NCBI GenBank assembly: GCA_965224465.1
Contig: OZ245049.1
Location: forward strand, 510,001-542,000
DNA length: 32,000 nt
Source: Flavobacteriaceae bacterium
Lineage (GTDB): Bacteria; Bacteroidota; Bacteroidia; Flavobacteriales; Flavobacteriaceae
Reading direction: 5' to 3'
The notes below the pieces were generated by a model that did not search any database, was not told the origin of the DNA, and saw nothing but the letters and a program-made list of their open reading frames with translations. The position numbers were made by a program, and so were the translations under genes. Below, in pieces: positions 8,183 to 31,039 of the stretch (position 1 is the stretch's first letter; every line of letters starts with the position of its first letter).

Positions 8183-8363
8183 TTGTTCTGTTTAAAATAA
8201 TAAGCAGCAAATATACAAATAGCATCCCTAAATAAACTGACAAATAGCACTGTTTTATAGCCGTATTTAAAGCTCTTTAAAATAACAGCCGTATTTTGAT
8301 TGCATCTGCCTCTAGATTACATAATATTTACAGGGAACAATGTGTTTATTTTAGGTTCTATTT

Positions 8364-8543: not shown

Positions 8544-8573
8544 ATTTGAAAAGAATCAAATACCATAAAAAAA

Positions 8574-10106: not shown

Positions 10107-10121
10107 TGAAAATTATTTTTC

Positions 10122-10345: not shown

Positions 10346-10354
10346 TTCTTATTA

Positions 10355-10555
10355 AGCCATGCTTCTCCAAAAACCACAGAGATATACACCAAGACCATCA
10401 AAATTAACAGTAAAAAAATCGTTGGACCGCTTGAAAATTTAAAAAATTTGAATACTTTTAACGATAAAAACAAATAATCACTCATTCTACTCTAGCTATG
10501 TTAGAAATAACAGCTACTCTAAGAGTTCTATAGTAGATATACGGGTGTTAGGCAC
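10355..10555 (+). repeat. Recombinase-3'-end/junction repeat, copy B (recombinase pseudogene fragment plus junction)
   Basis: The in-frame relic HASPKTTEIYTKTIKINSKKIVGPLENLKNLNTFNDKNK* (10358-10477) is homologous to the recombinase C-terminus. The unit ends atatacgggtGTTAGGCAC (10547-10555). Confidence 0.8.
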
Positions 10556-10568
10556 AATAACCAAATTT

Positions 10569-15109: not shown

Positions 15110-15170
15110 AGATAACGGAAATAACGTCAAGTTTTGGAAGTTTATTGATGATATACGGGTGTTACAAAAC
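14984..15170 (+). repeat. Recombinase-3'-end/junction repeat, copy C (the functional copy)
   Basis: It covers the last ~40 codons of the recombinase plus 60 nt, ending atatacgggtGTTACAAAAC (15161-15170). It is homologous to 8364-8543 and 10355-10555. Confidence 0.85.
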
Positions 15171-15196
15171 ATTAAAACCAATTAAAACCCTAAAAA

Positions 15197-16384
15197 ATGG
15201 CTTGGATTGAAATAAAAGGTTATCCTGAAACAAGAATGAAAATTGAATTTCCTAAAGTAGTAGCTATTGATGCAATAGAATGTATTACAGATTTAGAAGA
15301 TGGTTCTGACAATCTAGGCACAAATAGTACACAGAAAGGAATGATTTACGGGAAAGAATATGAATTCAAAGTTTCTAAGTATTATAAAAATAATACACCT
15401 ACTGATGAAATGATTAAAGAGATTATTTGGGAATACTCTTATGCAAATGATGAAGGGGGTGTAACAATAACAACTCAAAAAGAATCTTCTGGAGAAAGTT
15501 TTAAATTGAAAATTGATAACCTTGAAATATTAGGTAAAAAAATATCAATTTATGCTTATTTAGGATGTAAGCAAAGTGAAGGCAATTTAGATATCTTTTG
15601 CCATAATCGGTTTAGATATTTTGACAAGGAGATAATAAAAAATGAACTAAATAAGAGGAAAAATAATCCTGAATTAGCAAATCAAAGTATGACTCCTACT
15701 TGCGGAATGGCTTCAATATTTTATATATTAGCTAAAGAAGATTTTGATAACTATCAAAACTTTATACTTGATTTACATCAAACTGGGATTGCTAAATGTA
15801 ATTCATATGAAGTTGATGTTTCTAAATGTGAGCATTTATTAGAAATGGATCCTGTTATAGATAATTTATACCCCGTGTTATATGGTAAAAAAATGCCATA
15901 TATTGATTGGATTCCTTTTTCTTGCGTTAGAGACTTAGAAAATAATTTACCCATAAGTTATAATGGCAAAATGAGCCAATCTTCATTAGATGAATTTTCA
16001 GGAGCTACATTGCCTCACGAAATAGAAAAATTAATGAAAGAGGTTTTAGGTTTCAATAAAATTATAAACGACACAAATCTCGTTTTCAATAAAGATAGCC
16101 AAGCTTTTGGCGAAATATCCGCCAGAGAATTAAAGAAATTACAAGATTTATATTTAGATGGATATAATATATGCTTATTTATTAATACAAATATGATAAG
16201 TAATAAGAAATCTGGAATTTTATCGACAATTGAACATTGGGTCGTATTCGAGGGAATTATTGGAGGAACAATTAGTTGGGATGAATATGATTTCAAAGTC
16301 TTTACTTGGGGTCGTATCGAGAAAATCATTATAAACCCAGAGTCATTCAGATCAAATTATTATGGATATGTTGCAGGTAAATAA
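15197..16384 (+). CDS. Polymorphic-toxin-like protein, variant 2, with a papain/C39-like Cys-His peptidase (or amidase) fold
   Basis: 395 aa. It shares the N-terminal 22 aa with the 8574 ORF. The candidate catalytic set is NQSMTPTCGMASIFYIL (Gln, five intervening residues, then Cys-Gly) and TIEHWVVFEG (His). A lipoprotein gene follows. Confidence 0.5.
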   Translation: MAWIEIKGYPETRMKIEFPKVVAIDAIECITDLEDGSDNLGTNSTQKGMIYGKEYEFKVSKYYKNNTPTDEMIKEIIWEYSYANDEGGVTITTQKESSGESFKLKIDNLEILGKKISIYAYLGCKQSEGNLDIFCHNRFRYFDKEIIKNELNKRKNNPELANQSMTPTCGMASIFYILAKEDFDNYQNFILDLHQTGIAKCNSYEVDVSKCEHLLEMDPVIDNLYPVLYGKKMPYIDWIPFSCVRDLENNLPISYNGKMSQSSLDEFSGATLPHEIEKLMKEVLGFNKIINDTNLVFNKDSQAFGEISARELKKLQDLYLDGYNICLFINTNMISNKKSGILSTIEHWVVFEGIIGGTISWDEYDFKVFTWGRIEKIIINPESFRSNYYGYVAGK

Positions 16385-16781: not shown

Positions 16782-16792
16782 AACGTTTTGTA

Positions 16793-18648
16793 ATCGAGTA
16801 GACGGGTGACAACTGAATAGTTGCCACTGCGCCTCTCACACCACCGTACGTACGGGTCTCGTATACGGCGGTTCAAAAAATTGAAGTCTGCGTATTATTA
16901 ATGTAATCTATCAAAGGTTTATACCCTTTTCGTACAAGTCTAGATTTGGTAATGGTAGTCTTTAAAATTGGACTTTGGGCTACTGCCCATCCTCCCATTC
17001 TGGTTCTACTCCAAGCGTATGCTTGTCCATTCTCTATTCCTAATCTGATTAGGTTTTTACGTTTTCGTTCGAGTTTTTTCCAATCGTGCCAAATACAATA
17101 TCGCAACCGATTTCTTATCCACTCATCTAGCTTTTTAACTTTTGCATAGATGTTGGTTAAACGGTAATTATTCATCCAGCCTCGGCAGACTTGATTAAGC
17201 CGTTCTAAACGTTCCGACAATGACATTGGTTTGGTTTTCTTGGTAATACTCTTTAGGTTACGCTTAAACTTTGCCCAACTTTTCTTTGCTACTACTAGTA
17301 TATATTGTCCTTTTACTCCCTTTTTGTAGACTGGCACAAAGCCATGTCCTAGTAACTCAAAGTTTACGGGTCTACGAATGCCACTTTTGGCTTTATTTAT
17401 AGGTAGTTTTAATTTGTCTTTTAAGAAGACAAACAACGTATTCCCTATTTGTTTCGCCTCACGTTTGGTCTTTGCGTAAATGCTAAAATCATCTGCGTAG
17501 CGGACGTACCGTAAACCCATTCTTTTCATTTCTTTATCCAAGACGTCTAACATTATGTTAGATAGTAAGGGACTAATTGGGCTTCCTTGCGGGATTCCTT
17601 TTCTACGCTTTTGAAGTTTCCCATTTATTAAAATAGGAACTCTAAGCCATTTTCGGATTAAACGCATGGTTGTTGGACATTTTACCCTGTGGTAAATAAG
17701 TTGTAGTAGGATACAATGGTCCACTTCATCAAAGAACCCTTTAAGGTCAATATCTACAATATCTTGGTAACCATTATTGATATACTGTTGAGCTTGTAGT
17801 ACTGCTTTTTGAATGTTCTTTTGTGGTCTAAACCCAAAACTAAGTGGCTCAAAATCAAATTCGAACTGAACCATTAATTGTTGGCTTACCGCTTGCTGTA
17901 GCCATCTATCTACTACTGTTGGGATTCCTAAAAGTCTGGTTTTACCCTTGCCTTTTGGAATGCTTACTCCTAAGATTGAGTTTGGAACATAGCTATTCTT
18001 ACGGATCGTTGTTAGTATGTCTGAACGGTTTTCAACTATATAAGTTGAAAGTTCCGTTACTTTCATACCATCAACTCCGCTAGCTCCTTTATTTCGCTTC
18101 ACTTGACGTGCTGCTTTAAAAAGGTTGGTAGCTTCTAGTACTTTGTCAATCATAGGTTAAATAATTCGGGTACTCCTGTTGGTTTAAAACTAGGCTAGCT
18201 AGGCATCCTAATTGAATTTCAACGTAATTTAATGTTCTGTCCTTCCCTATTTGTGAGACCATCTGAGGTCTTTCCTCAACTCGTTTCCCATAGGTACTAT
18301 GACGTCTGCTGACTTCTCCATAGAACCAACTCCTGGCTTTGGAGACCTCCCCAGGTAATGACATCTTCTTTCACTCAATCACTGCCGTATCTACATAACT
18401 ACCCTTTTAGTATTCTTTTGGGCGTTGCAATGATGTGTTTACTTACCCAAGTAATTATACCTCTGTATACGGTTTCTGTTCGTCAGTACCGAGCTTTGTA
18501 GTCTCGCTTCCTTCAGATAAAACCTCACGGTTTTCACCCTTGCGACTTACTAATGTTTCAGAACGTTACTCCTGCACATAAGGGACTTGCACCCTCTAGA
18601 TTAATTAACTACCTTTCCGTAGTTAAAAGATGCCCATGCTGGGCACAC
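16793..18648 (-). mobile_element. Group II intron, bacterial class C (IIC), copy 1; intact, 1856 nt
   Basis: Read on the minus strand: 5' GTGTGCCCAGCATGGG, AGGGTGCAAGTCCC, CTGAAGGAAGCGAGAC, CCTGGGGAGGTCTCC, GAAGTCAGCAGACGTCATAGTACC. Domain V is GAACCGCCGTATACGAGACCCGTACGTACGGTGGTGTG, followed by a short domain VI ending ...CTACTCGAT. As I recall it, this closely parallels the Oceanobacillus iheyensis IIC ribozyme. The ends are uncertain by about 2 nt. Confidence 0.9.
16873..18153 (-). CDS. Group II intron reverse transcriptase/maturase (no endonuclease domain)
   Basis: 426 aa. RT blocks: GVDGM, RLLGIPTVVDRWLQQA, FGFRPQKN, DIDLKGFFD, GIPQGSPISPLLSN, YVRYADDFSIY. It has an X/maturase tail. The stop abuts domain V. 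Confidence 0.95.
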   Translation of the reverse strand: MIDKVLEATNLFKAARQVKRNKGASGVDGMKVTELSTYIVENRSDILTTIRKNSYVPNSILGVSIPKGKGKTRLLGIPTVVDRWLQQAVSQQLMVQFEFDFEPLSFGFRPQKNIQKAVLQAQQYINNGYQDIVDIDLKGFFDEVDHCILLQLIYHRVKCPTTMRLIRKWLRVPILINGKLQKRRKGIPQGSPISPLLSNIMLDVLDKEMKRMGLRYVRYADDFSIYAKTKREAKQIGNTLFVFLKDKLKLPINKAKSGIRRPVNFELLGHGFVPVYKKGVKGQYILVVAKKSWAKFKRNLKSITKKTKPMSLSERLERLNQVCRGWMNNYRLTNIYAKVKKLDEWIRNRLRYCIWHDWKKLERKRKNLIRLGIENGQAYAWSRTRMGGWAVAQSPILKTTITKSRLVRKGYKPLIDYINNTQTSIF

Positions 18649-18840
18649 ACAAAGTATATAAAACATAGCTAATAAGTGCTTAACCCAAAGGTCAGTGCTT
18701 ATTTACTAAGTTCCGCCAAATTTTTAATTTGGCTTTTAAAATAGAAAAGATAAAAACAAAATATAAAAATCTGGCTCTGTGCTAAACCCGAAATTTATCG
18801 TATTTTCATACGCTACGTTTCATATACAAACCGTTAGGTG
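18649..18840 (+). other. Long attC-like site (right part; the left 9 nt are at 16784-16792, split off by intron 1)
   Basis: The reconstituted left end is GTTTTGTA|AC-AAAGTATA. It has three GTGCTWA boxes, the first two 19 nt apart. The central hairpin is GCCAAATTTTTA (18715) paired with TAAAAATCTGGC (18775). The right end is TATACaaaccGTTAGGTG (18833-18840). Confidence 0.65.
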
Positions 18841-18866
18841 CAAGCTGAAAAAAAAATCCCACCGCA

Positions 18867-18917
18867 CGTTCAAGCACATTTTATTTTGCTCGTGCCTCAC
18901 AAAATAAAAAGAGCTTG
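18867..18917. repeat. Hairpin element with conserved loop CTCGTGCCTCA, copy 1 (5' leader of the 4-gene cassette)
   Basis: caagcacattttattttg - ctcgtgcctca - caaaataaaaagagcttg, with 16 of 18 stem positions paired. A second copy with compensatory stem changes is at 23758-23813. Confidence 0.6.
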
Positions 18918-19026
18918 CCCTTTCCCACCACCACCACTCAAACGAAAACAAGAATAAAACTCACAACTTTTTGAGATAAAATGAAAAAATAACTTACTTT
19001 AGTGGCTGAATAAATTACATCTAAAA

Positions 19027-19221
19027 ATGAATCGGATAAAAGAAGTTTTGGAAGAAAAAGGCATTAAACAAATTTGGCTTGCTGAGAAATTGGGGAAAAG
19101 CTATAATATGGTAAATGCTTATGTACAAAACAGACAACAACCAAGATTAGAAATTTTATTCAAGATTGCGGAAATACTGGATATTTCTGTAAAAGATTTA
19201 ATTATTGAAGCTAAAAAATAA
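19027..19221 (+). CDS. XRE-family helix-turn-helix regulator
   Basis: 64 aa. The HTH is IKQIWLAEKLGKSYNMVNAYVQNRQQP. It has a paralogue at 31196 that also heads a cassette. Confidence 0.85.
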   Translation: MNRIKEVLEEKGIKQIWLAEKLGKSYNMVNAYVQNRQQPRLEILFKIAEILDISVKDLIIEAKK

Positions 19222-19222
19222 A

Positions 19223-21190
19223 ATGACAATATTACATCCATTAGATGATTTCATATATACTCTTTTTCCAAACATTGAAAAGAGCCAAGATAGTCTTGAA
19301 ACTGCACTAACAGAATTCTATTCAGTTGGAAATGTTAAACCTATCATTGAATTCAATAAAGAATTTGTCAAAATAACTATTGACTTTCTTAAAATTGAAA
19401 CCGAAAACAAACAATTTTCAAAATTGATTTCACTATGTGAATCAGCAAATTTCGAAGAAGCCAAAATTTTAGCTGACAAATTAATTGAATTAAATCCTAA
19501 TAATTCAGAATATCACAGAATTCACGGACAAATATATTCGGAATTAGGCAATCAAGGAGAAGCAATAAATTCATTAATATATTCTTTAAGATGGAATCCT
19601 AAAAATGAATGGGCTTTACTAATGATGGGTAATATTTTCGCGAAATATCAAAACGATATTAATACCGCAATGAAATACTACGACCAAGTATTGATTGTAA
19701 AACCAAACGATTGCATTACTTTAAATAATATTGGTGCAAATTTAATGCAACTCAATAATAAAAAAGAGGCAATAATTTATTTTAATAGAGCGTTAAAATC
19801 AGACAGTAATTATCCTAACACATATTACGGGCTTGCGTTAGTTGCAAATGGTGATGAAGATTATAAAAAAGCTTTTGAATTATCACTTGTTGCATTATCA
19901 AAAACAAATAAAAAATCAAACCAACAACTTTATTCAAATTCCTTTCATTTAGCTTTAGAATCAGCAAATAAACTAAAGGAAGTTGTAAATGCAGATAAAA
20001 TAATCAAAGATTTTACTGCAAAACTCGCCTATTTATCAGAAAAAGAAATAAAAATTGAGATTGACGATACTATACTAACATCAGCAAAAATTGAATTTGC
20101 AGAAAATTATGATAGAGAATATCATTTAGTAAAGTACAAATCAAATCATATTGGTGTTGAACATTTAATACTTCATGAATTAACACATTTAGAACTAGTG
20201 TTAGAAGCTAGAAAAGAGGATTTAAACGAGCTTTTTATAAGTAATGAATCAAACAAAACCAATTTTATATACTCGCTAGAAAAAGACACTTTAAAACTTA
20301 AAAAAAATGGAGTTTCAGAAGAAAATATTACCAATTATTTTTCTGCCCTTTTCAATGGTTTAAACAGTCAAACTTTTAATACACCAATTGATTTATTTAT
20401 TGAAGATAGAATTTTTAGCAATTGGGAAGAATTAAAACCAATTCAATTTCTTTCTTTATTGTCAATATTACAGGAAGGTATTCAGGCAAATACAAATAAA
20501 GAAATTGTAAAAAATACTCCAAAAACGGTTCTTTCGAAATCAAAAATTTACAACCTAATCAATGCTTTACATTTCAAAAAACTATTTGAATTAGATTTAA
20601 TAGACCAATTTAACGCAACAAAACTTGAACTAAATCAAGCAACTGAACTTTATGCTGAATTTGAAGAATATAGAGTTGATAAAGCACCTGCAGAGGAATA
20701 CGAATTAGTAAAACATTGGGGTGAAGATTTAAAATTGGATGATTTTTACGAATTAGTACCTGAATCTGATTACCGAAAAAAAACTATAGATTCGGTACTT
20801 GAAGAAATTCAAAATGACCCATTAGGTCTGAATACTTCAAATTCATCACACGACCGTAAAATGAAAAAATTCCTAGAAGAAAATTCTTCTGAGGAAATAA
20901 ACATGGCAGTTGCCATGTTTATGGGTGATGCACTAAAACATTTTAAAGCAATTCCATTAGCAGAAACTAAAAAAATTGCTTTTGAAATTGCTACAATTGG
21001 AACTCAAGGAATAGACCCAAACCAAAAAAACTATTCAATACCTTCAATAAAAAACAGTAGTTTTTCTGGCTATAAAACTTTAGCATATTATTATGTTAGT
21101 TGGGCATTAGCTATTCCAGAAATGTTAAAACAATTGCAATTGCCTTTCGATAAAGAATATAAACTAGCTACTAAATTTTTAAAACTCTAA
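19223..21190 (+). CDS. TPR-repeat protein with an HExxH (zinc-metallopeptidase-like) motif
   Basis: The start is probably the ATG at 19223, 1 nt after the XRE stop; the tracked start at 19205 overlaps the XRE gene. At least three TPR units span residues ~80-230 (NPNNSEYHRIHGQIYSELGNQGEAI..., KPNDCITLNNIGANL..., DSNYPNTYYGLALV). The motif VEHLILHELTHLELV lies at about residue 320. Confidence 0.6.
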   Translation: MTILHPLDDFIYTLFPNIEKSQDSLETALTEFYSVGNVKPIIEFNKEFVKITIDFLKIETENKQFSKLISLCESANFEEAKILADKLIELNPNNSEYHRIHGQIYSELGNQGEAINSLIYSLRWNPKNEWALLMMGNIFAKYQNDINTAMKYYDQVLIVKPNDCITLNNIGANLMQLNNKKEAIIYFNRALKSDSNYPNTYYGLALVANGDEDYKKAFELSLVALSKTNKKSNQQLYSNSFHLALESANKLKEVVNADKIIKDFTAKLAYLSEKEIKIEIDDTILTSAKIEFAENYDREYHLVKYKSNHIGVEHLILHELTHLELVLEARKEDLNELFISNESNKTNFIYSLEKDTLKLKKNGVSEENITNYFSALFNGLNSQTFNTPIDLFIEDRIFSNWEELKPIQFLSLLSILQEGIQANTNKEIVKNTPKTVLSKSKIYNLINALHFKKLFELDLIDQFNATKLELNQATELYAEFEEYRVDKAPAEEYELVKHWGEDLKLDDFYELVPESDYRKKTIDSVLEEIQNDPLGLNTSNSSHDRKMKKFLEENSSEEINMAVAMFMGDALKHFKAIPLAETKKIAFEIATIGTQGIDPNQKNYSIPSIKNSSFSGYKTLAYYYVSWALAIPEMLKQLQLPFDKEYKLATKFLKL

Positions 21191-21194
21191 AATT

Positions 21195-21524
21195 ATGGGA
21201 GATATAAAAGAAATAACTACTGAGTTATTAAAATTTAGAAACGAAAGAGATTGGGAACAATTTCATAATCCCAAAGATTTGGCATTGGCAATAAATATTG
21301 AAGCTGGCGAATTATTGGAAGAATTTTTATGGAAAAAACCAGAAGAAGCTAAAATTGAAAAAATTAAAGAAGAATTAGCAGACGTTTTTGCTTATGCCTT
21401 TTTACTAGCTGATAAATATGATTTTAATGTTAAAAAAATAATATTAGAAAAAATAAAAAAAAATGGAGAAAAGTACCCAATAGAAAAAGCTAAGGGAACA
21501 GCTAAAAAATACAATCAATTATAA
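21195..21524 (+). CDS. MazG-like nucleoside-triphosphate pyrophosphohydrolase (all-alpha NTP-PPase, DCTPP1/YpjD-like)
   Basis: 109 aa. Motifs: FRNERDWEQFHNPKDLALAINIEAGELLEEFLWK, then EELADVFAYAFLLADKYDF. Confidence 0.8.
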   Translation: MGDIKEITTELLKFRNERDWEQFHNPKDLALAINIEAGELLEEFLWKKPEEAKIEKIKEELADVFAYAFLLADKYDFNVKKIILEKIKKNGEKYPIEKAKGTAKKYNQL

Positions 21525-23749
21525 TGTTTAGTAACTCTGTTAATGTAAAAAGTTACCCTTTTAATAAGATAGATATTGGGTTAATCAATAATGATGATTT
21601 TGCTCGTGACTCATATCCTATTGTTTACATCTTATACAATACCGAAACTATGATAGCTTATGTTGGTGAGTCAACAAATGCTATGAATAGGATGAGTAAT
21701 CATTTAGTTCATCCTGAAAAGAAGAACTTGAAATGGGTTTATATAATTTCGGATGAATCATTTAATAAATCTGCTGCTCTAGATATTGAGTCAAATCTCA
21801 TTCAGTATATGACAGCAGCTGGTAATTTTAAACTACTTAATGGTAACGGTGGCGTATCAAGTCATAATTACTACCAAAAAAATGAGTATTTCAAAATTTT
21901 TAAAGAAGTTTGGAGTAAATTATCATTTGAGAATATTAAAATGAAAGATTTATTAGAGTTAGAAAACTCTGATATATATAAATATTCACCATATAAATCG
22001 TTATCATCAGATCAATATAATTCCATCTTGGAAATATTAAAAAGTTATTCAAGTGGGAAAATAAAAACAATTTTCGTAGATGGTAGTGCGGGAACAGGAA
22101 AAACAATTTTAGCCATCTATTTAATTAAATTACTAGCCACATTATATCAATACGAACTACATGATTTAGATATTGAAGATGAATCTCTTTTGTTAGAATT
22201 AGAAGCATTTAAATTAAAGCACCCCGAAACACTTAGCCTTGCTCTTGTAGTTCCCATGACTTCACTTCGTAGCACTTTGAAAAAGGTATTTAAAAGTATA
22301 CACGGTTTGTCTGGAAATATGGTAATTGGCCCTAATGATGTGGTAAAAAAACAATATGATTTATTGATTATAGATGAATCTCATCGCTTGACACGTAGAA
22401 AATCTATTCTAGGATATGGAGCATTTGATAATGTTAATAAAAAATTAGGATTATATCATAGTGAAATAATAAACGGTAAGAGAGTACAATCAGCAGAAAA
22501 AAACGGTACACAATTAGATTGGATTACGAAATCTAGTAAATTTCAATTATTATTTTATGATGCAGAACAATCTATTAAGCCTGCAGATATAAGAAAGGAA
22601 GACTTTGATAAAATTAAGGAAAAAAGTGATGCTTTACAAATGACACTTGTTTCTCAAATGCGTTCAAAAGGAAAAAATGATTACATATCATTTGTGGATA
22701 AATTGTTAAACGAAAAACTAGATGATAATTCCACCCAATTTCATAATCCAAATTATGAGTTGGAATTATATGATGATATGTCTTTTATGATGAAGCGTTT
22801 GCAAGAAATGGAAAATAAATTTGGCTTATGTCGCACAATGTCTGGTAATTCGTGGCCTTGGGTTTCAAGAACAAATTCTAAAAAACCAGATGCCATCATT
22901 GATGGAGTCGATTTGTTTTGGAACATAAAAACAATAGATTGGATAAATTCTACAACAGAAGTTACGGAAATGGGCTGTATTCATACTGTCCAAGGCTATG
23001 ATTTGAATTATTCTGCAATAATATTTGGAGAGGAAATCACATATGATAAGCAAGAGAAAAAAATTAAAGTCATAAAAAGAAACTATCATGATGCAAAAGG
23101 AAAACAATCCTTAGGAAATGAAGATGAGTTATTAAAATACATAATTAAGATATATAAAACAATGATGTATCGTGGCATTAGAGGTACATTTATTTATGTT
23201 TGCGATAAAAATTTACGTGACTATTTTGAGAACTACATCACTCTTAATAAGCCAGAAAATAAATTAAGAATTTTACCCTTTGAAGATGTTAAACCTTATG
23301 TGAACTCTGTTCCTTTAGTTGATATTTATGCAGCTGCAGGTGAGTTTAGTGAATTGCAGATTTCAAATGAAGACTTTGATTGGGTTGAGTTACCAAAAAA
23401 TATTTCAGTTCAAGAAGGATATTTTGTTTGCCAAATAATCGGTGAATCTATGAATAAGAAAATAGAAAATGGTTCTTGGTGCTTATTTCGTAAGAAGCCT
23501 GTTGGTAGCAGAGAAGGTAAGATTGTTTTGGCTAAACATTACGATATCCAGGACTCTGATTTTGGTGCTGGATATACCGTCAAATCATATCATAGTGAAA
23601 AAAATATTTCTGAAGAAAGTTGGTCTCATAAATCAATTGTTCTAAAACCACTCTCATTTGATTCTAGTTTTAAAGACATAATATTAAGTGGAGATGAAAT
23701 AAATAAATTACAAATAGTTGGAGAATTAATTACTGTTTTAGACATTTGA
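21524..23749 (+). CDS. Three-domain fusion: GIY-YIG-like nuclease, DUF2075 (Schlafen-type P-loop NTPase/helicase-like), and S24 LexA/UmuD-like peptidase
   Basis: The ATG overlaps the MazG stop (TAATG). N-terminus: PIVYILYN...AYVGESTNAMNRMSNH...LDIESNLI. Middle: Walker A VDGSAGTGKT, Walker B LLIIDESHRL, YDAEQSI, and CIHTVQGYDLNYSAIIFG. C-terminus: VPLVDIYAAAGEF...IIGESMNKKIENGSWCLF...GKIVLAKH, with Ser in GxSM and Lys. Confidence 0.7.
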   Translation: MFSNSVNVKSYPFNKIDIGLINNDDFARDSYPIVYILYNTETMIAYVGESTNAMNRMSNHLVHPEKKNLKWVYIISDESFNKSAALDIESNLIQYMTAAGNFKLLNGNGGVSSHNYYQKNEYFKIFKEVWSKLSFENIKMKDLLELENSDIYKYSPYKSLSSDQYNSILEILKSYSSGKIKTIFVDGSAGTGKTILAIYLIKLLATLYQYELHDLDIEDESLLLELEAFKLKHPETLSLALVVPMTSLRSTLKKVFKSIHGLSGNMVIGPNDVVKKQYDLLIIDESHRLTRRKSILGYGAFDNVNKKLGLYHSEIINGKRVQSAEKNGTQLDWITKSSKFQLLFYDAEQSIKPADIRKEDFDKIKEKSDALQMTLVSQMRSKGKNDYISFVDKLLNEKLDDNSTQFHNPNYELELYDDMSFMMKRLQEMENKFGLCRTMSGNSWPWVSRTNSKKPDAIIDGVDLFWNIKTIDWINSTTEVTEMGCIHTVQGYDLNYSAIIFGEEITYDKQEKKIKVIKRNYHDAKGKQSLGNEDELLKYIIKIYKTMMYRGIRGTFIYVCDKNLRDYFENYITLNKPENKLRILPFEDVKPYVNSVPLVDIYAAAGEFSELQISNEDFDWVELPKNISVQEGYFVCQIIGESMNKKIENGSWCLFRKKPVGSREGKIVLAKHYDIQDSDFGAGYTVKSYHSEKNISEESWSHKSIVLKPLSFDSSFKDIILSGDEINKLQIVGELITVLDI

Positions 23750-23757
23750 AAAGCCAA

Positions 23758-23813
23758 CGTAAGTTCAAGCACATTTAAAGTTTGCTCGTGCCTCACAAAT
23801 TTAAAAGAGCTTT
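23758..23813. repeat. Hairpin element with conserved loop CTCGTGCCTCA, copy 2 (3' trailer of the 4-gene cassette)
   Basis: caagcacatttaaagtttg - ctcgtgcctca - caaatttaaaagagcttt. It has the same loop as copy 1, and the stem sequence changes on both arms. Confidence 0.6.
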
Positions 23814-23860
23814 CACGCCAACGCTAGTAAGTTTGCGGAAAGAAAAAAGCCAGACACCTA

Positions 23861-25765
23861 ATCGAGTAGACGGGTGACAACTGAATAGTTGCCACTGCGC
23901 CTCTCACACCACCGTACGTACGGGTCTCGTATACGGCGGTTCAAAAAATTGAAGTCTGCGTATTATTAATGTAATCTATCAAAGGTTTATACCCTTTTCG
24001 TACAAGTCTAGATTTGGTAATGGTAGTCTTTAAAATTGGACTTTGGGCTACTGCCCATCCTCCCATTCTGGTTCTACTCCAAGCGTATGCTTGTCCATTC
24101 TCTATTCCTAATCTGATTAGGTTTTTACGTTTTCGTTCGAGTTTTTTCCAATCGTGCCAAATACAATATCGCAACCGATTTCTTATCCACTCATCTAGCT
24201 TTTTAACTTTTGCATAGATGTTGGTTAAACGGTAATTATTCATCCAGCCTCGGCAGACTTGATTAAGCCGTTCTAAACGTTCCGACAATGACATTGGTTT
24301 GGTTTTCTTGGTAATACTCTTTAGGTTACGCTTAAACTTTGCCCAACTTTTCTTTGCTACTACTAGTATATATTGTCCTTTTACTCCCTTTTTGTAGACT
24401 GGCACAAAGCCATGTCCTAGTAACTCAAAGTTTACGGGTCTACGAATGCCACTTTTGGCTTTATTTATAGGTAGTTTTAATTTGTCTTTTAAGAAGACAA
24501 ACAACGTATTCCCTATTTGTTTCGCCTCACGTTTGGTCTTTGCGTAAATGCTAAAATCATCTGCGTAGCGGACGTACCGTAAACCCATTCTTTTCATTTC
24601 TTTATCCAAGACGTCTAACATTATGTTAGATAGTAAGGGACTAATTGGGCTTCCTTGCGGGATTCCTTTTCTACGCTTTTGAAGTTTCCCATTTATTAAA
24701 ATAGGAACTCTAAGCCATTTTCGGATTAAACGCATGGTTGTTGGACATTTTACCCTGTGGTAAATAAGTTGTAGTAGGATACAATGGTCCACTTCATCAA
24801 AGAACCCTTTAAGGTCAATATCTACAATATCTTGGTAACCATTATTGATATACTGTTGAGCTTGTAGTACTGCTTTTTGAATGTTCTTTTGTGGTCTAAA
24901 CCGACCAACGGGAGCTCATGAACTCCCTAAAATAAAAAGCTGTGAATAACCCAAAACTAAGTGGCTCAAAATCAAATTCGAACTGAACCATTAATTGTTG
25001 GCTTACCGCTTGCTGTAGCCATCTATCTACTACTGTTGGGATTCCTAAAAGTCTGGTTTTACCCTTGCCTTTTGGAATGCTTACTCCTAAGATTGAGTTT
25101 GGAACATAGCTATTCTTACGGATCGTTGTTAGTATGTCTGAACGGTTTTCAACTATATAAGTTGAAAGTTCCGTTACTTTCATACCATCAACTCCGCTAG
25201 CTCCTTTATTTCGCTTCACTTGACGTGCTGCTTTAAAAAGGTTGGTAGCTTCTAGTACTTTGTCAATCATAGGTTAAATAATTCGGGTACTCCTGTTGGT
25301 TTAAAACTAGGCTAGCTAGGCATCCTAATTGAATTTCAACGTAATTTAATGTTCTGTCCTTCCCTATTTGTGAGACCATCTGAGGTCTTTCCTCAACTCG
25401 TTTCCCATAGGTACTATGACGTCTGCTGACTTCTCCATAGAACCAACTCCTGGCTTTGGAGACCTCCCCAGGTAATGACATCTTCTTTCACTCAATCACT
25501 GCCGTATCTACATAACTACCCTTTTAGTATTCTTTTGGGCGTTGCAATGATGTGTTTACTTACCCAAGTAATTATACCTCTGTATACGGTTTCTGTTCGT
25601 CAGTACCGAGCTTTGTAGTCTCGCTTCCTTCAGATAAAACCTCACGGTTTTCACCCTTGCGACTTACTAATGTTTCAGAACGTTACTCCTGCACATAAGG
25701 GACTTGCACCCTCTAGATTAATTAACTACCTTTCCGTAGTTAAAAGATGCCCATGCTGGGCACAC
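23861..25765 (-). mobile_element. Group IIC intron, copy 2; 1905 nt, RT-defective
   Basis: It matches copy 1 wherever I compared the two, and the RT translations are identical outside the lesion. The exception is a 49-nt insertion at 24901-24949. It sits at the same position of an attC-like site (CACCTA|intron|AC). Confidence 0.9.
23941..25270 (-). pseudogene. Disrupted intron RT/maturase
   Basis: The RT reading frame is split into a 124-aa N-terminal ORF (24896-25270, ending in out-of-frame residues) and a 283-aa remainder (23941-24792). The cause is the 49-nt insertion inside the FGFRPQKN block. Confidence 0.9.
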
Positions 25766-25956
25766 ACAATGTATAAAAAACATAGGGCGGTTTGTGCTAA
25801 ACTCTAAGTTCTGTGCTTGTTTACAAAGTCCGCTAAATATAAAATTTGGCATTTAGGAGAAAAATAAAAGCAAAATATTTATATTTAGCTAAGTAATAAA
25901 CCGAAACTAAAGTGCTTATTTATTGCCCTACGTTTCTTATACTAACCGTTGGCAAC
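25766..25956 (+). other. Long attC-like site (right part; the left end is at 23855-23860)
   Basis: The reconstituted left end is CACCTA|AC-AATGTATA. It has three GTGCT boxes. A perfect 12-bp central stem joins GCTAAATATAAA (25832) and TTTATATTTAGC (25889). The right end is TATACtaaccGTTGGCAAC (25948-25956). Confidence 0.65.
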
Positions 25957-26000
25957 AAGCAAAACAGAGATCCAATAAAATATAAAACAAAGAATTCTAA

Positions 26001-26531
26001 ATGGAAATTTTAAATATTGAAATAAAAGCAAAATCGGACAACCAAACTGAAATTAGGAATATCCTGAAATCAAAAAATGCTAAATATAAAGGAACTGACC
26101 ACCAAATTGATACGTATTTTAATGTTAACAATGGACGATTGAAATTAAGAGAAGGAAATATTGAAAACAACTTAATCCATTATATTAGAGAAAATAAAAA
26201 AGGACCAAAACAATCAAAAATAATTCTTTTTAATTCAGAGCCCAATTCTACTTTAAAAGAATTATTGACTGTTGCAAACGGAATTTTAACAGTAATTGAT
26301 AAAGAAAGAGAAATATATTTTATTGAAAATGTGAAATTTCATATTGATACTGTAAAAGAATTAGGAACTTTTATAGAAATTGAAGCAATTGATAAAGATG
26401 GAAGTATTGGAAAAGATAAATTATTATTACAATGTGAATACTATCTTGATTTATTTAATATTCCCAAAGAAAACCTGATATCTGTTTCATATAGTGATTT
26501 GAAATTAAAAGAAAAAATGAGAATGAAATAA
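26001..26531 (+). CDS. CYTH-domain protein (CyaB-like class IV adenylyl cyclase / triphosphate tunnel enzyme)
   Basis: 176 aa. It has the N-terminal EIEIK-type motif (NIEIKAK), then DTYF, RLKLRE, KEREIYFIENVKFHIDTVKELGTFIEIEA, and SYSDL near the C-terminus. Confidence 0.75.
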   Translation: MEILNIEIKAKSDNQTEIRNILKSKNAKYKGTDHQIDTYFNVNNGRLKLREGNIENNLIHYIRENKKGPKQSKIILFNSEPNSTLKELLTVANGILTVIDKEREIYFIENVKFHIDTVKELGTFIEIEAIDKDGSIGKDKLLLQCEYYLDLFNIPKENLISVSYSDLKLKEKMRMK

Positions 26532-26543
26532 AGCCAGTTGCCA

Positions 26544-28448
26544 ATCGAGTAGACGGGTGACAACTGAATAGTTGCCACTGCGCCTCTCACACCACCGTAC
26601 GTACGGGTCTCGTATACGGCGGTTCAAAAAATTGAAGTCTGCGTATTATTAATGTAATCTATCAAAGGTTTATACCCTTTTCGTACAAGTCTAGATTTGG
26701 TAATGGTAGTCTTTAAAATTGGACTTTGGGCTACTGCCCATCCTCCCATTCTGGTTCTACTCCAAGCGTATGCTTGTCCATTCTCTATTCCTAATCTGAT
26801 TAGGTTTTTACGTTTTCGTTCGAGTTTTTTCCAATCGTGCCAAATACAATATCGCAACCGATTTCTTATCCACTCATCTAGCTTTTTAACTTTTGCATAG
26901 ATGTTGGTTAAACGGTAATTATTCATCCAGCCTCGGCAGACTTGATTAAGCCGTTCTAAACGTTCCGACAATGACATTGGTTTGGTTTTCTTGGTAATAC
27001 TCTTTAGGTTACGCTTAAACTTTGCCCAACTTTTCTTTGCTACTACTAGTATATATTGTCCTTTTACTCCCTTTTTGTAGACTGGCACAAAGCCATGTCC
27101 TAGTAACTCAAAGTTTACGGGTCTACGAATGCCACTTTTGGCTTTATTTATAGGTAGTTTTAATTTGTCTTTTAAGAAGACAAACAACGTATTCCCTATT
27201 TGTTTCGCCTCACGTTTGGTCTTTGCGTAAATGCTAAAATCATCTGCGTAGCGGACGTACCGTAAACCCATTCTTTTCATTTCTTTATCCAAGACGTCTA
27301 ACATTATGTTAGATAGTAAGGGACTAATTGGGCTTCCTTGCGGGATTCCTTTTCTACGCTTTTGAAGTTTCCCATTTATTAAAATAGGAACTCTAAGCCA
27401 TTTTCGGATTAAACGCATGGTTGTTGGACATTTTACCCTGTGGTAAATAAGTTGTAGTAGGATACAATGGTCCACTTCATCAAAGAACCCTTTAAGGTCA
27501 ATATCTACAATATCTTGGTAACCATTATTGATATACTGTTGAGCTTGTAGTACTGCTTTTTGAATGTTCTTTTGTGGTCTAAACCGACCAACGGGAGCTC
27601 ATGAACTCCCTAAAATAAAAAGCTGTGAATAACCCAAAACTAAGTGGCTCAAAATCAAATTCGAACTGAACCATTAATTGTTGGCTTACCGCTTGCTGTA
27701 GCCATCTATCTACTACTGTTGGGATTCCTAAAAGTCTGGTTTTACCCTTGCCTTTTGGAATGCTTACTCCTAAGATTTAGTTTGGAACATAGCTATTCTT
27801 ACGGATCGTTGTTAGTATGTCTGAACGGTTTTCAACTATATAAGTTGAAAGTTCCGTTACTTTCATACCATCAACTCCGCTAGCTCCTTTATTTCGCTTC
27901 ACTTGACGTGCTGCTTTAAAAAGGTTGGTAGCTTCTAGTACTTTGTCAATCATAGGTTAAATAATTCGGGTACTCCTGTTGGTTTAAAACTAGGCTAGCT
28001 AGGCATCCTAATTGAATTTCAACGTAATTTAATGTTCTGTCCTTCCCTATTTGTGAGACCATCTGAGGTCTTTCCTCAACTCGTTTCCCATAGGTACTAT
28101 GACGTCTGCTGACTTCTCCATAGAACCAACTCCTGGCTTTGGAGACCTCCCCAGGTAATGACATCTTCTTTCACTCAATCACTGCCGTATCTACATAACT
28201 ACCCTTTTAGTATTCTTTTGGGCGTTGCAATGATGTGTTTACTTACCCAAGTAATTATACCTCTGTATACGGTTTCTGTTCGTCAGTACCGAGCTTTGTA
28301 GTCTCGCTTCCTTCAGATAAAACCTCACGGTTTTCACCCTTGCGACTTACTAATGTTTCAGAACGTTACTCCTGCACATAAGGGACTTGCACCCTCTAGA
28401 TTAATTAACTACCTTTCCGTAGTTAAAAGATGCCCATGCTGGGCACAC
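26544..28448 (-). mobile_element. Group IIC intron, copy 3; 1905 nt, RT-defective
   Basis: It has the same 49-nt insertion (27584-27632) as copy 2. It also has a G-to-T change at 27778 that converts RT codon TCA (Ser in VPNSILG) to TAA. It is inserted at GTTGCCA|intron|AC. Confidence 0.9.
26624..27953 (-). pseudogene. Disrupted intron RT/maturase (insertion plus nonsense mutation)
   Basis: The 283-aa C-terminal ORF is intact (26624-27475). The N-terminal part is no longer an ORF because of the TAA created at 27777-27779 on the minus strand. Confidence 0.85.
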
Positions 28449-28635
28449 ACAATGTATATAATTAATGCGGGGTTTGTGCTTAATTCAAAGAGCTGTGCTT
28501 TCTACAAACAACGCCAAATATAAAATTTAGTTTGTAGAAAAAAATACAAGCAAAATTATTATATTTGGCTAAGTGCTAAACCGAAAAGATAATTCTTTTA
28601 AGTTCCGCACTAATCATATACCAACCGTTATGGGC
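28449..28635 (+). other. Long attC-like site (right part; the left end is at 26537-26543)
   Basis: The reconstituted left end is GTTGCCA|AC-AATGTATA. It has three GTGCT boxes. The central stem joins GCCAAATATAA (28513) and TTATATTTGGC (28569). The right end is ATATACcaaccGTTATGGGC (28627-28635). Confidence 0.65.
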
Positions 28636-28668
28636 AAGTGAAAAAATCCCCACATTAAATAAATTGAA

Positions 28669-30966
28669 ATGAATTATCAAATAGATTATAATACGATTGT
28701 AATAGTAGCCTGCATACCTTTTATAATTGCATTGACAGCAATAGCTTTTCCTTTATTACTACAAACAACCAGTAGAATAGATGATAAATATTCATCAACT
28801 AACTTAGTGAAAGTATTCTACAATAATCGAATTTGTAAAGTTTATTTCTTCTCATTAGTGCTTTCTATAATTGCAATTCCAATTTGGTTTTTTGCTCCTC
28901 CCCGAATTTGGGATTTTGGAATATTTAATGAGTTGGTAGATAAAACCTCCTTTTTAATAATTGGCTTAAGCACATTATTTTTAATATGGAATTTGTTTTC
29001 TCTCGTTTATCTAATTTATGTATTTTATAGCCCTAATAAATTACTTGAATATTTAATTGATAAGCACAACGAAACTAATTTAAAAGAGGAAAGAACAAAA
29101 TATTTTATTTCAATTTCTGATTTACTATACTTCTCAATTCAGAATCCTAATGAAAAAATTGCTCGACAACTTGTTGAGTTTCTTAATCATATTTTCATTA
29201 TGGAAAGAAAAGATAATGAAAGTCAAATTATTAAATATCCATCAGAATACTACGATACAATTTTTGAGGCAAACGAACAAATTTGTTTAAAGAAAAAGAA
29301 AACTATTTCAGAGTATAATGGAAGTACATTTGTTAACCTCTTTATCGATAGTTATCAGAAAACTATTATTAGTGAGGAAACTTACAATGCTATTTGGTTA
29401 TGTCTTAGACAAAGTTTAAGTTATGAAAGAAGCGATATTGTAATGTCTTATTGGGGTAATGCTCATCAGCATTTCAATATGTTTATGCCAGTAATTCATG
29501 AAGAAAGGAATGAAAATTTCAAGGTTATTAATCAAGAAATCATTAGAAAAAGAGAAATTGAAAGAGAAAGGTTTTTAGAATTTCATTATGCCTTTGGAGG
29601 ACTAATGATGTATTTAGGGAAAATGGAATTACTAAAAAGAATAATTAGTCATACAAATCAAACGCCACCTAAATATGTTCTTGTGCCACAGACAATGATT
29701 GAGATAATTCAGAGATATATGAGCATTGAAGAACCTTTACTCAATCCTTTTCAGTTTGAAAGCAGGTATCATTTTCCAGAAAATACAGGAATAAATGCTG
29801 GAGGTATAATAAGAAAATGGATAAGGAAATATTGTGCTTTACTTTTTTTACGCCAATATACCCTCCACGACTATTATTATGGAAGATCTGCTCTTGACTT
29901 ACCAAATGTTCCAAATTCATTAACAGAATTGAATGCTTGGAAAGAAAAATTGGAAAGTTTAAAAAGATTTATAAAAGAGTTACTTGTTGACAATGAGTCT
30001 TTAAAAGAGGTTGGTTTAGGTGATCTAAATAATGATTGGTTTACTAAAAATGAAAAACAAAAACCAGCGGAATTAATAGATACCCTTATTAAAAGAGCAA
30101 ACAAAAAATATGACGAAACAAAAAAAGAACAACCGGTTTCAAAAGACAAGGAAACTGAATTCAAAGCCAAGACTAAAGAAATTGTTTTGCAGGCTATAAA
30201 CACCTATACTGAAGTTAATAATGGCAATGATATTGAAGAAAATTTCAAATCCTATTATATTAATGGAGTTTATCAATTGATGGATAAATCGGGTTTTGCT
30301 GACAATCAAGATATTTCTCATCTTAATTCAGATACTATTGTTGCTCAAAGTGTTGCTTCAAATATACATTTTAAACTTACAAGTACTTTTTCTTATTTTA
30401 TTTCAAAAGATTACTTAATTGAAAGAGAGAATATTTTTGAGGCAATTGACAGGTTAAGTGTCAACCTTAAAGAATATTGTATAATATCATTTGGTGTTTA
30501 CCTTCCGTTTTTAGTAGACAATTTAAAAGTTCCTAATCTAACCAAACAAGGTGAATTCTATTATTTTCATGATACTAAAATAATTACTCTAAACACTTAT
30601 GTAAATGAAGTAGTAAGAGATTCTATTATAGTAATAAAGAAAGACTGTTTGCCTAAATTAGTATTTAAAACAATAGACACAGAAGAATTCACTAAATATA
30701 ACTTAGACGAATTGGATGAGCAAACTCATCTTTCTGCATCAATTGTTGATTTAAATATTAATCAAGATTTAAGGGATGAAATATCACGTAAATCGAATGA
30801 AGATTTAACAAAAAATGTATTAGCATGTATTTCCCTTTGTATTGAAACTCGCTGGAAATCATCTACTACTTGTTATCAATTTAAACCTTTTGACCAATTT
30901 AGAAATAAGGGAATTCCACAAAAATTGGAAGATATTGAAACGATAAATAAAACAACCAGCCCATAA
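28669..30966 (+). CDS. Large membrane-anchored protein of unknown function (about 4 N-terminal TM helices plus a ~630-aa soluble region)
   Basis: 765 aa. Hydrophobic segments lie within residues 10-125. I recognise no motif in the rest. The ORF fills its cassette exactly, and its stop codon lies inside the cassette-end motif GCCCATAAC. Confidence 0.6.
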   Translation: MNYQIDYNTIVIVACIPFIIALTAIAFPLLLQTTSRIDDKYSSTNLVKVFYNNRICKVYFFSLVLSIIAIPIWFFAPPRIWDFGIFNELVDKTSFLIIGLSTLFLIWNLFSLVYLIYVFYSPNKLLEYLIDKHNETNLKEERTKYFISISDLLYFSIQNPNEKIARQLVEFLNHIFIMERKDNESQIIKYPSEYYDTIFEANEQICLKKKKTISEYNGSTFVNLFIDSYQKTIISEETYNAIWLCLRQSLSYERSDIVMSYWGNAHQHFNMFMPVIHEERNENFKVINQEIIRKREIERERFLEFHYAFGGLMMYLGKMELLKRIISHTNQTPPKYVLVPQTMIEIIQRYMSIEEPLLNPFQFESRYHFPENTGINAGGIIRKWIRKYCALLFLRQYTLHDYYYGRSALDLPNVPNSLTELNAWKEKLESLKRFIKELLVDNESLKEVGLGDLNNDWFTKNEKQKPAELIDTLIKRANKKYDETKKEQPVSKDKETEFKAKTKEIVLQAINTYTEVNNGNDIEENFKSYYINGVYQLMDKSGFADNQDISHLNSDTIVAQSVASNIHFKLTSTFSYFISKDYLIERENIFEAIDRLSVNLKEYCIISFGVYLPFLVDNLKVPNLTKQGEFYYFHDTKIITLNTYVNEVVRDSIIVIKKDCLPKLVFKTIDTEEFTKYNLDELDEQTHLSASIVDLNINQDLRDEISRKSNEDLTKNVLACISLCIETRWKSSTTCYQFKPFDQFRNKGIPQKLEDIETINKTTSP

Positions 30967-31039
30967 CACGTGCTCATACATCATAGCTTTGCCGCAGGCG
31001 CAACACAAAGATACGCTGCATAGCACCACCGTTACCTGC
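30959..31039 (+). other. Short (81-bp) attC-like site, intron-free
   Basis: GCCCATAAC-ac-GTGCTcATaCA...TGcATAGCAC-cacc-GTTACCTGC. It has R-type ends AAC/GTT, unequal spacers (2 vs 4 nt), and an imperfect inner stem with bulged bases. Confidence 0.6.

Follow-up and report, generated by a model that had tools for sequence, protein, structure and literature searches.

What has brought three nearly identical group II introns to one and the same point of three intergenic sites, each of them antisense to the genes around it? The question is raised by a 32,000-nt stretch of a Flavobacteriaceae genome (contig OZ245049.1, positions 510,001 to 542,000; the whole stretch is called the window, and coordinates refer to it), for which an initial annotation had recorded the three insertions and likened them to the group IIC-attC introns of integrons. 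Based on the analysis presented here, the three are very probably copies of a single mobile intron of class C, which retrohomed into the attC-type sites of an integron-like array. The array is chromosomal and belongs to a Flavobacteriia-like Bacteroidota genome. As far as the sequence tells, target, strand and orientation match those of IIC-attC introns in full: a new, largely one-phylum lineage with a known mechanism.

Three intron copies at one insertion position

Repeat finding and a three-way alignment place all introns on the minus strand, opposite to the cassette genes, at 16793-18648 (copy 1, 1856 nt), 23861-25765 (copy 2, 1905 nt) and 26544-28448 (copy 3, 1905 nt), in exact agreement with the initial annotation. 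In total they cover 5666 nt or 17.7% of the window, where about 5.7 kb (18%) had been estimated. Copy 1 is a full-length class C intron (5′ GUGUG, 3′ AU) with an intact gene for the intron-encoded protein (IEP). Copy 2 has the same ribozyme and a 49-nt insertion, the IEP gene being split into open reading frames (ORFs) of 124 and 283 aa; copy 3 carries the insertion of copy 2 and differs from it by one single-nucleotide polymorphism (SNP). Beyond this indel and this SNP nothing distinguishes the copies (100% identity), which indicates that their spread is very recent.

The exon flanks differ among the three copies on both sides, up to the intron ends. On the plus strand the junctions read TTTTGTA/../ACAAAGTATATA for copy 1, ACACCTA/../ACAATGTATAAA for copy 2 and GTTGCCA/../ACAATGTATATA for copy 3 (a slash marks the insertion point), just as initially described. 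On the intron strand all copies share (T or A)TTGT/GTGTGCCC...CTCGAT/T, followed by ACAAAAC, AGGTGTC and GGCAAC, respectively; with longer flanks, copy 1 reads TATACTTTGT/GTGTGCCC...CTCGAT/TACAAAAC, copy 2 TATACATTGT/.../TAGGTGTC and copy 3 TATACATTGT/.../TGGCAACT. The alignment of these junctions bears out that all three sites are interrupted at one and the same position. At the 3′ end, the boundary follows from the Rfam model of domains V and VI, which ends exactly at 16793. By repeat extent alone, the 5′ boundary could be TGT/GTGTG or T/GTGTGTG; it was set behind TGT because the helix between exon-binding site 1 (EBS1) and intron-binding site 1 (IBS1) in relatives ends in ...TGT, and because joining the exons at this point restores the GTT triplet of the site. 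Three features had escaped the initial annotation, namely the ORF-breaking 49-nt insertion, a fourth, truncated intron remnant, and a cassette-specific complementarity between the site ends R'' and R'.

Class C ribozyme and reverse transcriptase

Each copy matches the Rfam models RF02001 (126 bits) and RF01998 (36 bits), which in copy 1 cover 18360-18534 and 18268-18342, respectively, and delimit a domain I-IV ribozyme core at 18268-18534 (minus strand). Domains V and VI (16793-16873, minus strand, with the bulged branch-point A in CUACUCGAU and 16793 as last intron base) match RF00029 over the full model (1-77, E = 7.7e-6), at a relaxed threshold since the score of 39.9 bits lies just below the gathering value of 40. 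When the same scan was run on 17 reference loci, the pair of RF02001 and RF01998 was found in 14 of 14 class C introns, from class 1 integrons as well as from terminator sites in Firmicutes and Proteobacteria, whereas two non-C introns matched RF01999 instead. The intron ends (5′ GUGUG, 3′ AU) and the ~575 nt outside the ORF fit a compact IIC ribozyme with GUGYG...AY termini.

The IEP of copy 1 (426 aa, 16873-18153, minus strand) comprises a reverse transcriptase (RT) with the YADD motif, a maturase/X domain and a C-terminal DNA-binding region, and is devoid of an endonuclease domain. It is recognised by Pfam RVT_1 (1.7e-39) and GIIM (1.1e-15) as well as by NCBIfam TIGR04416 (358 bits, cutoff 300). 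In a phmmer search of PDB, the best matches were the GsI-IIC RT (311 bits, end-to-end over residues 2-415) and the E. rectale IIC RT (299 bits), with LtrA (IIA, 114 bits) and TeI4h (IIB, 110 bits) far behind. A neighbour-joining (NJ) tree likewise places the window RT among class C sequences, apart from two non-C outgroups. As RNA and protein agree, the assignment to class C, which the initial annotation had made for the introns, is regarded as established.

Cassettes and attC-type sites

Cassette ORFs are found exclusively on the plus strand of the window, introns exclusively on the minus strand. Every R'' element (NNNNNA/AC) is the reverse complement of the GTT plus 5-7 nt that opens the same cassette; this holds for four of four cassettes in the window, whose R'' and R' are complementary over 8-10 nt and bounded at G/TT. 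In attC1, R'' (CGTTTTGTA/, then AC; 16784-16792) forms the 3′ exon of copy 1 and complements GTTACAAAAC at 15161-15170; the remainder of the site (18649-18835, 5′ exon of copy 1) consists of AC, L''...L' and the R' GTT at 18833-18835, where the next cassette opens with GTTAGGTG. The R'' of attC2 (AGACACCTA/, that is ACACCTA/AC; 23852-23860) complements GTTAGGTG at 18833-18840, and the remainder (25766-25950) ends in the R' GTT at 25948-25950 that opens a cassette encoding a CYTH protein (GTTGGCAAC). The R'' of attC3 (CAGTTGCCA/, GTTGCCA/AC; 26535-26543) complements GTTGGCAAC at 25948-25956, the remainder of this site (28449-28629) containing the R' GTT at 28627-28629 with which cassette 4 opens (GTTATGGGC). 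The last site, attC4 (30959-31033), is unoccupied and ~80 nt long; its R'' GCCCATAAC complements GTTATGGGC at 28627, and its bottom strand reads GTGT/T. Thus, three of four sites in the window are occupied, and in each of them the intron occupies the bottom strand inside R'', between GT and T of the GTT triplet, and runs antisense to the cassette genes.

The occupied sites are long (~200 nt), and their bottom strands can be drawn as one long imperfect hairpin from AACGGT... to ...TATAC(A or T)TTGTT, with the insertion point at its 3′ foot. For the reconstituted bottom strand of attC2, folding with DNA parameters gave −26.3 kcal/mol, with z = −3.64 relative to shuffled sequences. Two further approaches were dropped: a fuzzy reverse-complement search for the hairpin partner in the 5′ exon, the stems being too imperfect, and an RNAfold test for AAC/GTT closure, which did not discriminate (22 of 50 real sites vs 20 of 60 controls). 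A test for complementary R'' and R' 8-mers was used in their place.

The site bodies contain conserved blocks, GTGCTTAA..CAAAG, GCCAAAT.TAAAATTTGG and AAACCGAAA. The only Bacteroidota-type −7 motif found upstream of a cassette gene, TATATTTG, lies in the body of attC3 (28449-28660, plus strand), 110 nt before a 765-aa ORF.

An empty site and relocated cassettes in a sister strain

An exact-protein look-up of the CYTH cassette protein identified a contig of a sister strain (ena:ERZ25073217:ctg14802l), whereas analogous look-ups of four other cassette proteins returned none on record. Contig and window agree in the chromosomal cob/TonB locus (99.7% identity) and in the recombinase region (99.2% identity along 2587 nt of DNA). 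The CYTH cassette matches without a single difference along 597 nt (window 25948-26544, 100% identity); in the sister strain, though, it stands directly behind the recombinase and an attI-like site. Identity to the window switches exactly at the GTT (...GATGATATACGGGTG/TTGGCAAC). The attC site of this CYTH cassette is uninterrupted in the sister strain (locus L098 in our numbering, GCCAGTTGCCAACAA) and reads ...AAAGCCAGTTGCCAACAAAGTG, which is the predicted join of 3′ and 5′ exon with nothing gained or lost; the flank is identical over the entire 597 nt up to the join. The sister-strain sample also contains the window cassette that begins at 15161, preceded there by another site and again with the break at G/TT. 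The relocation of two cassettes with such breaks indicates that the cassettes move and have boundaries of the integron type. At least seven further sites of the identical intron were found in the same sample, all of them TTGT/T.

Beyond the join, the site bodies of the window (28449-28629) and the sister strain (L098:9948-10745 region) are only 69% identical. The native CYTH site of the sister strain is composed of the CYTH R'' and a body, here called X, while in the window the CYTH R'' is connected via copy 3 to another body. Body X, in turn, is joined via an intron to a different R'' in the sister-strain contig L104 (520-700). Both halves of the native site are thus found with a foreign partner, with an intron at the junction each time. 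This suggests homologous recombination between intron copies or, alternatively, a recombinase exchange at R'' (top-strand), and is taken as a lead: most sites in these strains are occupied, and an exchange by the recombinase at R'' would give the same breakpoints. Cassette assembly via homologous recombination between introns is a route attributed to Leon & Roy 2009 in PMC7923331. A 54-nt identical 5′ flank of a sister-strain intron and copy 1 was discarded as an artefact of BLAST extension, the flank being ~70% identical.

The recombinase at the head of the array is a tyrosine recombinase of 378 aa (13973-15109, plus strand), encoded co-directionally with the cassettes, related to IntI and Xer, and matched by Pfam Phage_integrase and SAM_4. 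It is followed by the attI-like junction GATGATATACGGGTG/TT (15147-15163, plus strand), where the first cassette starts; this is the GTT at which identity to the sister strain stops. Against the integron-integrase model TIGR02249 the recombinase scores 180 bits where the cutoff is 265, slightly less than against the XerA model. The protein has an N-terminal extension of ~85 aa.

These data bear on the alternative that the split sites are some other intergenic repeat, for example of the repetitive extragenic palindromic (REP) or miniature inverted-repeat transposable element (MITE) type, which merely serves the intron as a homing site. A recombinase that stays below the integron-integrase cutoff and has no IntI additional domain is in line with this proposal, as are the unusual length of the sites (~200 nt) and the fact that one of them folds no better than shuffled sequence. 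The complementarity of every R'' to the first 8-10 nt of its own cassette is, however, the signature of circularisable cassettes, and the CYTH and 15161 cassettes do occupy other array positions in the sister strain, with breaks exactly at G/TT and one of them directly behind an attI-like site. In addition, the recombinase shares 28% identity with IntI1 and has a C-terminal tail of the IntI type, ...PL(D or E). A mere repeat is therefore considered distinctly unlikely, and attC-type recombination sites remain the preferred assignment.

Relatives and phylogeny

Scanning genome collections with the window RT retrieved a family of 79 loci with 49-91% aa identity. All but one are from Bacteroidota, including Flavobacteriales, Cytophagales, Marinilabiliales-type and Chitinophagales metagenome-assembled genomes (MAGs); the exception, L053, belongs to a contig whose label is that of an uncultured cyanobacterium MAG. 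Of the distinct full-length insertions, 57 in number, 56 have a 5′ exon ending in TGT and 53 a 3′ exon starting with T, with position −4 being T (22), G (20), C (9) or A (6). The introns have the same orientation relative to the cassettes as in the window and the sister strain. For 48 sites with enough flank, the 8-mer test asked for a cassette-specific complement of GTT plus the next five bases of the 3′ exon within 2.9 kb downstream; it was present in 36, where ~2 are expected by chance, and in the context NNNNNAACG(G or T)T..GTATA, i.e. ..AACG(G or T)T..GTATA. Uninterrupted sites of the same type (TATACGGTGTTGTAGCC...) exist within the same arrays of relatives. Several of the Bacteroidota loci have related recombinase genes at the cassette-upstream end, the position seen in the window (L019, 70% identity; L028, 49%; L061, 43%). 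From this census, the whole clade appears specialised on attC-type sites.

Against the reference IIC-attC RTs, the window RT reaches 35-36% identity, a lower value than the 38-42% found with several non-attC IIC RTs. An exhaustive phmmer search of 1.84 billion representative sequences gave its own cluster at 60% identity and the next full-length proteins at 40-42%. The NJ tree comprises 100 sequences with a non-C outgroup and was built without the deep IIC-attC references G.s.I1 and N.e.I1; it replaces an earlier tree rooted with L093, a sequence that proved to be of class C as well. Bootstrap support is 100% for the Bacteroidota clade and 100% for the reference IIC-attC clade, but 2-56% for the nodes between them. 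On sequence grounds, the window RT hence belongs to a separate Bacteroidota clade, whose sister relation to the proteobacterial IIC-attC clade is not settled by the NJ backbone. The initial comparison with IIC-attC introns thus stands for target, strand, orientation and class; membership of the phylogenetic IIC-attC lineage does not follow, given a clade of its own and this backbone.

Some relatives show peculiar arrangements. L034 (2490-6234) has two full copies head to tail (...CTCGAT/GTGTGCCC...), and in L021, L046 and L073 the 3′ exon begins with GTGTGCTGTG, which is the 5′ end of a different intron. In L021 and L026, an insertion of ~25 nt in domain I (~165) is complementary to a ~24-nt insertion in the domain V region (~1800), e.g. 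GCTCAGGACAG with CTGTCCTGAGC. The sequences of these insertions differ between lineages, and in L024 the alignment detected only the one in the domain V region; they may represent a lineage-specific long-range pairing.

Target recognition

Introns of the IIC-attC type insert at TTGT/T in R'', on the bottom strand of attC (PMC7923331, PMC3001079), and the lineage is defined likewise in PMC3001079, PMC7923331 and PMC4424553. For comparison, four examples were fetched from plasmids, three of them in class 1 integrons, after blaIMP-26 (Serratia), arr-2 (Klebsiella) and aadA1 (P. putida), and the fourth in a Shewanella array, whose small genes run antisense to the intron. All four are antisense to the cassettes. 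Where both ends could be read, the junctions are AATTGT/GTACGCCCAGCATGGGCA (also GTACGCCC)...CCCGAT/TAGAAA, i.e. TTGT/T. All three window sites share this target within R'', so that the bottom-strand target given in the initial annotation agrees with both the references and the literature.

The EBS1 of the intron, 5′-ACAUCA, is found in an 8-nt terminal loop of domain I (18431-18436 in copy 1, 25548-25553 in copy 2 and 28231-28236 in copy 3, minus strand). This loop corresponds to consensus positions 94-101 of RF02001 and reads A-ACACAUCA in the window (intron positions 211-218), and its ACA (213-215) can pair with UGU at −3 to −1, the end of the 5′ exon. The pairing of ACA with UGU is invariant in 52 relatives. 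In Cytophagales relatives, compensatory pairings of 7 bp were observed (ACAGCAC with GTGCTGT at three loci, ACATCAC with GTGATGT at one), with L079 as exception. An analysis of mutual information between exon positions and domain I alignment columns was dropped because the alignment is gappy and confounded by phylogeny; the EBS1 loop was inspected directly instead.

Based on these comparisons, target recognition would involve an EBS1-IBS1 helix of 3 bp (ACA with UGU). By analogy with class C biology, this helix would be complemented by an EBS3-IBS3 pair with T at +1 and by recognition of the adjacent DNA stem-loop in place of IBS2. Both elements are credited to Robart, Seo & Zimmerly 2007 and Leon & Roy 2009 in PMC4424553 and PMC7923331. 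Since the protein is devoid of an endonuclease domain, the intron would be expected to reverse-splice into transiently single-stranded or replication-fork DNA, and a nascent DNA strand may prime reverse transcription. In an occupied site, 1.9 kb stand between the R'' arm and the remaining hairpin; such a site should therefore recombine poorly.

The initial annotation had pointed out that the unoccupied site (there delimited as 30959-31039) reads GTGT/T at the equivalent position, which is correct, and had contrasted it with TTGT/T. All ten known sites of exactly this intron, in the window and the sister-strain sample, are TTGT/T. Among the relatives, however, 20 of the 57 insertions with the same EBS1 core are at GTGT/T, where a G-U at −4 adds a pair. 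GTGT thus is no obvious barrier and would not explain the empty site; attC4 is also of a different, short type.

Given the brevity of the IBS1 pairing, the hairpin must supply most of the specificity. This is what a generic terminator-seeking IIC intron would rely on if the cassette-end hairpins acted as terminator-like stem-loops and the connection to recombination sites were incidental; class C introns in general insert after intrinsic terminators (PMC4424553), and the non-integron IIC references fetched here after terminators or T-runs. Against this proposal, the three copies are antisense to the upstream gene, no T-run precedes the insertion point, and the insertion is inside the GTT of R'' instead of behind a hairpin and U-tract. 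The cassette-specific complementarity at 36 of 48 insertions in relatives exceeds chance by far, and all ten sites of the window intron are at cassette ends. An incidental association is highly improbable on these grounds, and the intron is best described as one that targets attC-type sites.

Spread of the intron and defective copies

The 49-nt insertion of copies 2 and 3 (GGTTATTCACAGCTTTTTATTTTAGGGAGTTCATGAGCTCCCGTTGGTC) is located in RT domain 2, after codon ~107 (minus strand), at 24899-24947 and 27582-27630, respectively. Its placement is ambiguous by 4 nt (GGTT), so that the ranges extend to 24899-24951 and 27582-27634 when this register ambiguity is included. An 18-nt imperfect palindrome is found inside. 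The insertion leaves the ribozyme unaltered and shifts the reading frame of the RT gene. No other copy was detected in the window, in 96 loci, or in a metagenome scan with the core of the insertion (0 matches). Since copies 2 and 3 have the insertion in common but reside in different sites, the insertion predates the spread of the defective form, which most simply, we infer, took place with RT/maturase supplied in trans from an intact copy.

Inserts of ~48-55 nt with a hairpin are a recurrent feature of this intron family, at varying positions. Of these, the 49-mer is flanked by GGTT on either side and has TTCATGAG in its palindrome; an insert of 53-55 nt in the domain V loop of the intron remnant in the window (~10188-10242), present also in a full-length sister-strain intron (L104:~2490-2542), contains TTCATGAG as well. 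The introns of Mariniflexile ostreae carry related inserts of 52 and 48 nt (ATCACGAAWWCCAAA...TGAGT) in the ORF; the loci with such hairpin inserts include L024, L026 and L007.

Can the copies have been multiplied mainly by events at the DNA level (duplication, homologous recombination, gene conversion), with copies 2 and 3 as dead relics? The region is indeed a patchwork, with three recombinase 3′ ends plus attI, a truncated intron and IS30; the CYTH R'' is joined via an intron to a site body that is only 69% identical to that of the sister strain; and copies 2 and 3 are unable to make a full-length RT. Conversely, the flanks of the three copies differ on both sides up to the intron ends, and junctions exact to the nucleotide at 10 sites of this intron and ~55 sites of relatives are as expected from reverse splicing, not from duplication. 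The near-complete identity of the copies further speaks for very recent spread. Multiplication by such events is considered unlikely, and retrohoming is preferred. As direct repeats, the identical introns would also be substrates for homologous recombination.

In summary, retrohoming of a class C intron into attC-type sites would account for the junctions, the empty site, and the conserved target in relatives. It should be noted that several observations weigh against this assignment. The window copies form only 3 bp between EBS1 and IBS1, which is typical for class C, and extended pairing across the family is modest, 89 of 2000 exon permutations reaching the observed mean pairing. The hairpin of attC4 is no more stable than shuffled sequence (z = −0.38), so that despite the value obtained for attC2 the folding energies do not settle the matter by themselves. 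The IntI additional domain is absent from the recombinase, whose alignment to IntI1 shows gaps of 29 aa, and further gaps, exactly over the IntI-specific segment; as it is no canonical IntI, the array is called integron-like and the sites attC-type, the term attC being used by analogy. Lastly, the shared 49-nt insertion could have spread by gene conversion instead of mobilisation in trans.

A more far-reaching scenario is possible but tentative, and we would sooner doubt than adopt it at present. Here, the introns would form a Bacteroidota-specific IIC branch specialised on non-canonical integron-like sites with a co-directional Xer-like recombinase, having arisen independently of IIC-attC introns or split from them deeply. 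They would be so abundant (three of four sites in the window, at least seven in the sister strain) as to reshape the arrays, with RT-defective copies mobilised in trans and recombination between introns reassorting cassettes with foreign site bodies; the hybrid CYTH site speaks for the latter.

Surroundings of the array

Upstream of the cassettes, "recombinase 3′ end plus attI-like junction" occurs in three copies (8341-8570, 10353-10583 and 14967-15197) that are 60-84% identical. Each of them ends in ...ATA(C or T)G(G or T)GGG(T)GTT followed by cassette-specific bases, and only the third belongs to a full-length gene. The region resembles several array heads piled up and partly deleted; an IS30 transposase (11480-12457) lies among them. 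The fourth, related intron is a remnant at approximately 10118-10345 (minus strand) that retains the 3′ end of the ORF, domain V with an insertion of ~54 nt, domain VI and the end ...CUAUUCAAU/U; at its 5′ side it is cut by a copy of the recombinase 3′ end. The cassette genes that come first after two attI-like junctions (8574-9749 and 15197-16384, plus strand) have 5′ ends with 84% DNA identity over 67 nt, beyond which they diverge. The gene at 8574-9749 encodes a DUF6402 protein and has a small ORF behind it, an arrangement suggestive of a polymorphic toxin/immunity pair.

A cassette of unusual size (4.9 kb) with genes at 19205-23749 (plus strand) encodes a TPR protein, a MazG-like pyrophosphatase, and a protein with GIY-YIG, Schlafen-type helicase and S24 peptidase-like parts; it may be a defence module. 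PADLOC, run on ten cassette proteins, gave weak matches to the helicase and nothing else. Cassettes of the sister strain encode, among others, HATPase_c_3, GmrSD_N, RE_ApaLI and AAA_15 proteins. In both strains the array adjoins the conserved cob/TonB locus, and in the window a cobalamin riboswitch (3965-4162, minus strand, RF00174, 92.5 bits) lies upstream of a gene for a TonB-dependent receptor, beside a cobQ/cobD/cobC-type cluster.

Comparison with known systems

The hosts listed for IIC-attC introns are Proteobacteria and one NC10 bacterium (PMC3001079), and a search of the accessible literature for class C or attC-targeting introns in Bacteroidota found nothing. With the present data, the host range of group II introns that target attC would come to include a large and coherent clade of Bacteroidota, represented in Flavobacteriales, Cytophagales and Marinilabiliales-type genomes. 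The introns are independent evidence for the nature of the long intergenic repeats in these arrays, namely recombination sites that fold as single strands, though the recombinase fails the usual integron-integrase test; they could also serve as a marker for finding such arrays. They also offer natural material for two old proposals, namely the assembly or reshuffling of cassettes via homologous recombination between IIC-attC introns and the trans-mobilisation of ORF-defective introns.

The closest known counterparts in terms of target are the IIC-attC introns of proteobacterial integrons (S.ma.I2, E.c.I7, Kl.pn.I1, G.s.I1, N.e.I1), reportedly the subject of Quiroga 2008 and Leon & Roy 2009/2010. 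They share with the window intron a class C ribozyme and an RT/maturase without endonuclease domain, and they likewise sit on the bottom strand, antisense, inside R'' at TTGT/T, where several may stand in one array, also beside other introns. In contrast, the window RT, with 35-36% identity, falls into a separate clade of 100% support with nearly all copies in Bacteroidota, and the window array has a co-directional recombinase without the IntI additional domain. An internal outward promoter (Pout) in domain I/II that drives the downstream cassette is a character of the IIC-attC lineage; a crude scan for Bacteroidota-type motifs detected none in the window intron, i.e. no TAnnTTTG-type motif on the cassette strand of its 5′ 500 nt.

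With the terminator-targeting IIC introns (B.h.I1, GsI-IIC, E. rectale, R. intestinalis), the window intron has in common the closest solved RT structures and the same Rfam models, as well as a short IBS1, reliance on a DNA stem-loop and the lack of an endonuclease domain. The difference lies in the position: these introns follow a hairpin and a T-run, usually in sense orientation after a gene, whereas the window intron is antisense inside the GTT and has no T-run.

Regarding the array itself, a resemblance is seen to rAID-1 and integron-like arrays of Bacteroidales, which according to Ross et al. (bioRxiv 10.1101/471110) combine a 5′ Xer-like tyrosine recombinase with co-directional low-GC cassettes and repetitive intergenic sequences. 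The toxin/immunity-type genes of the window array, exemplified by the DUF6402 protein (8574-9749), likewise find a parallel in the rAID-1 arrays as described there, a likeness of layout and gene content. The Bacteroidota integrons of published surveys (PMC8618304) show the same organisation as the window array, with a 5′ Xer-like recombinase followed by co-directional cassettes.

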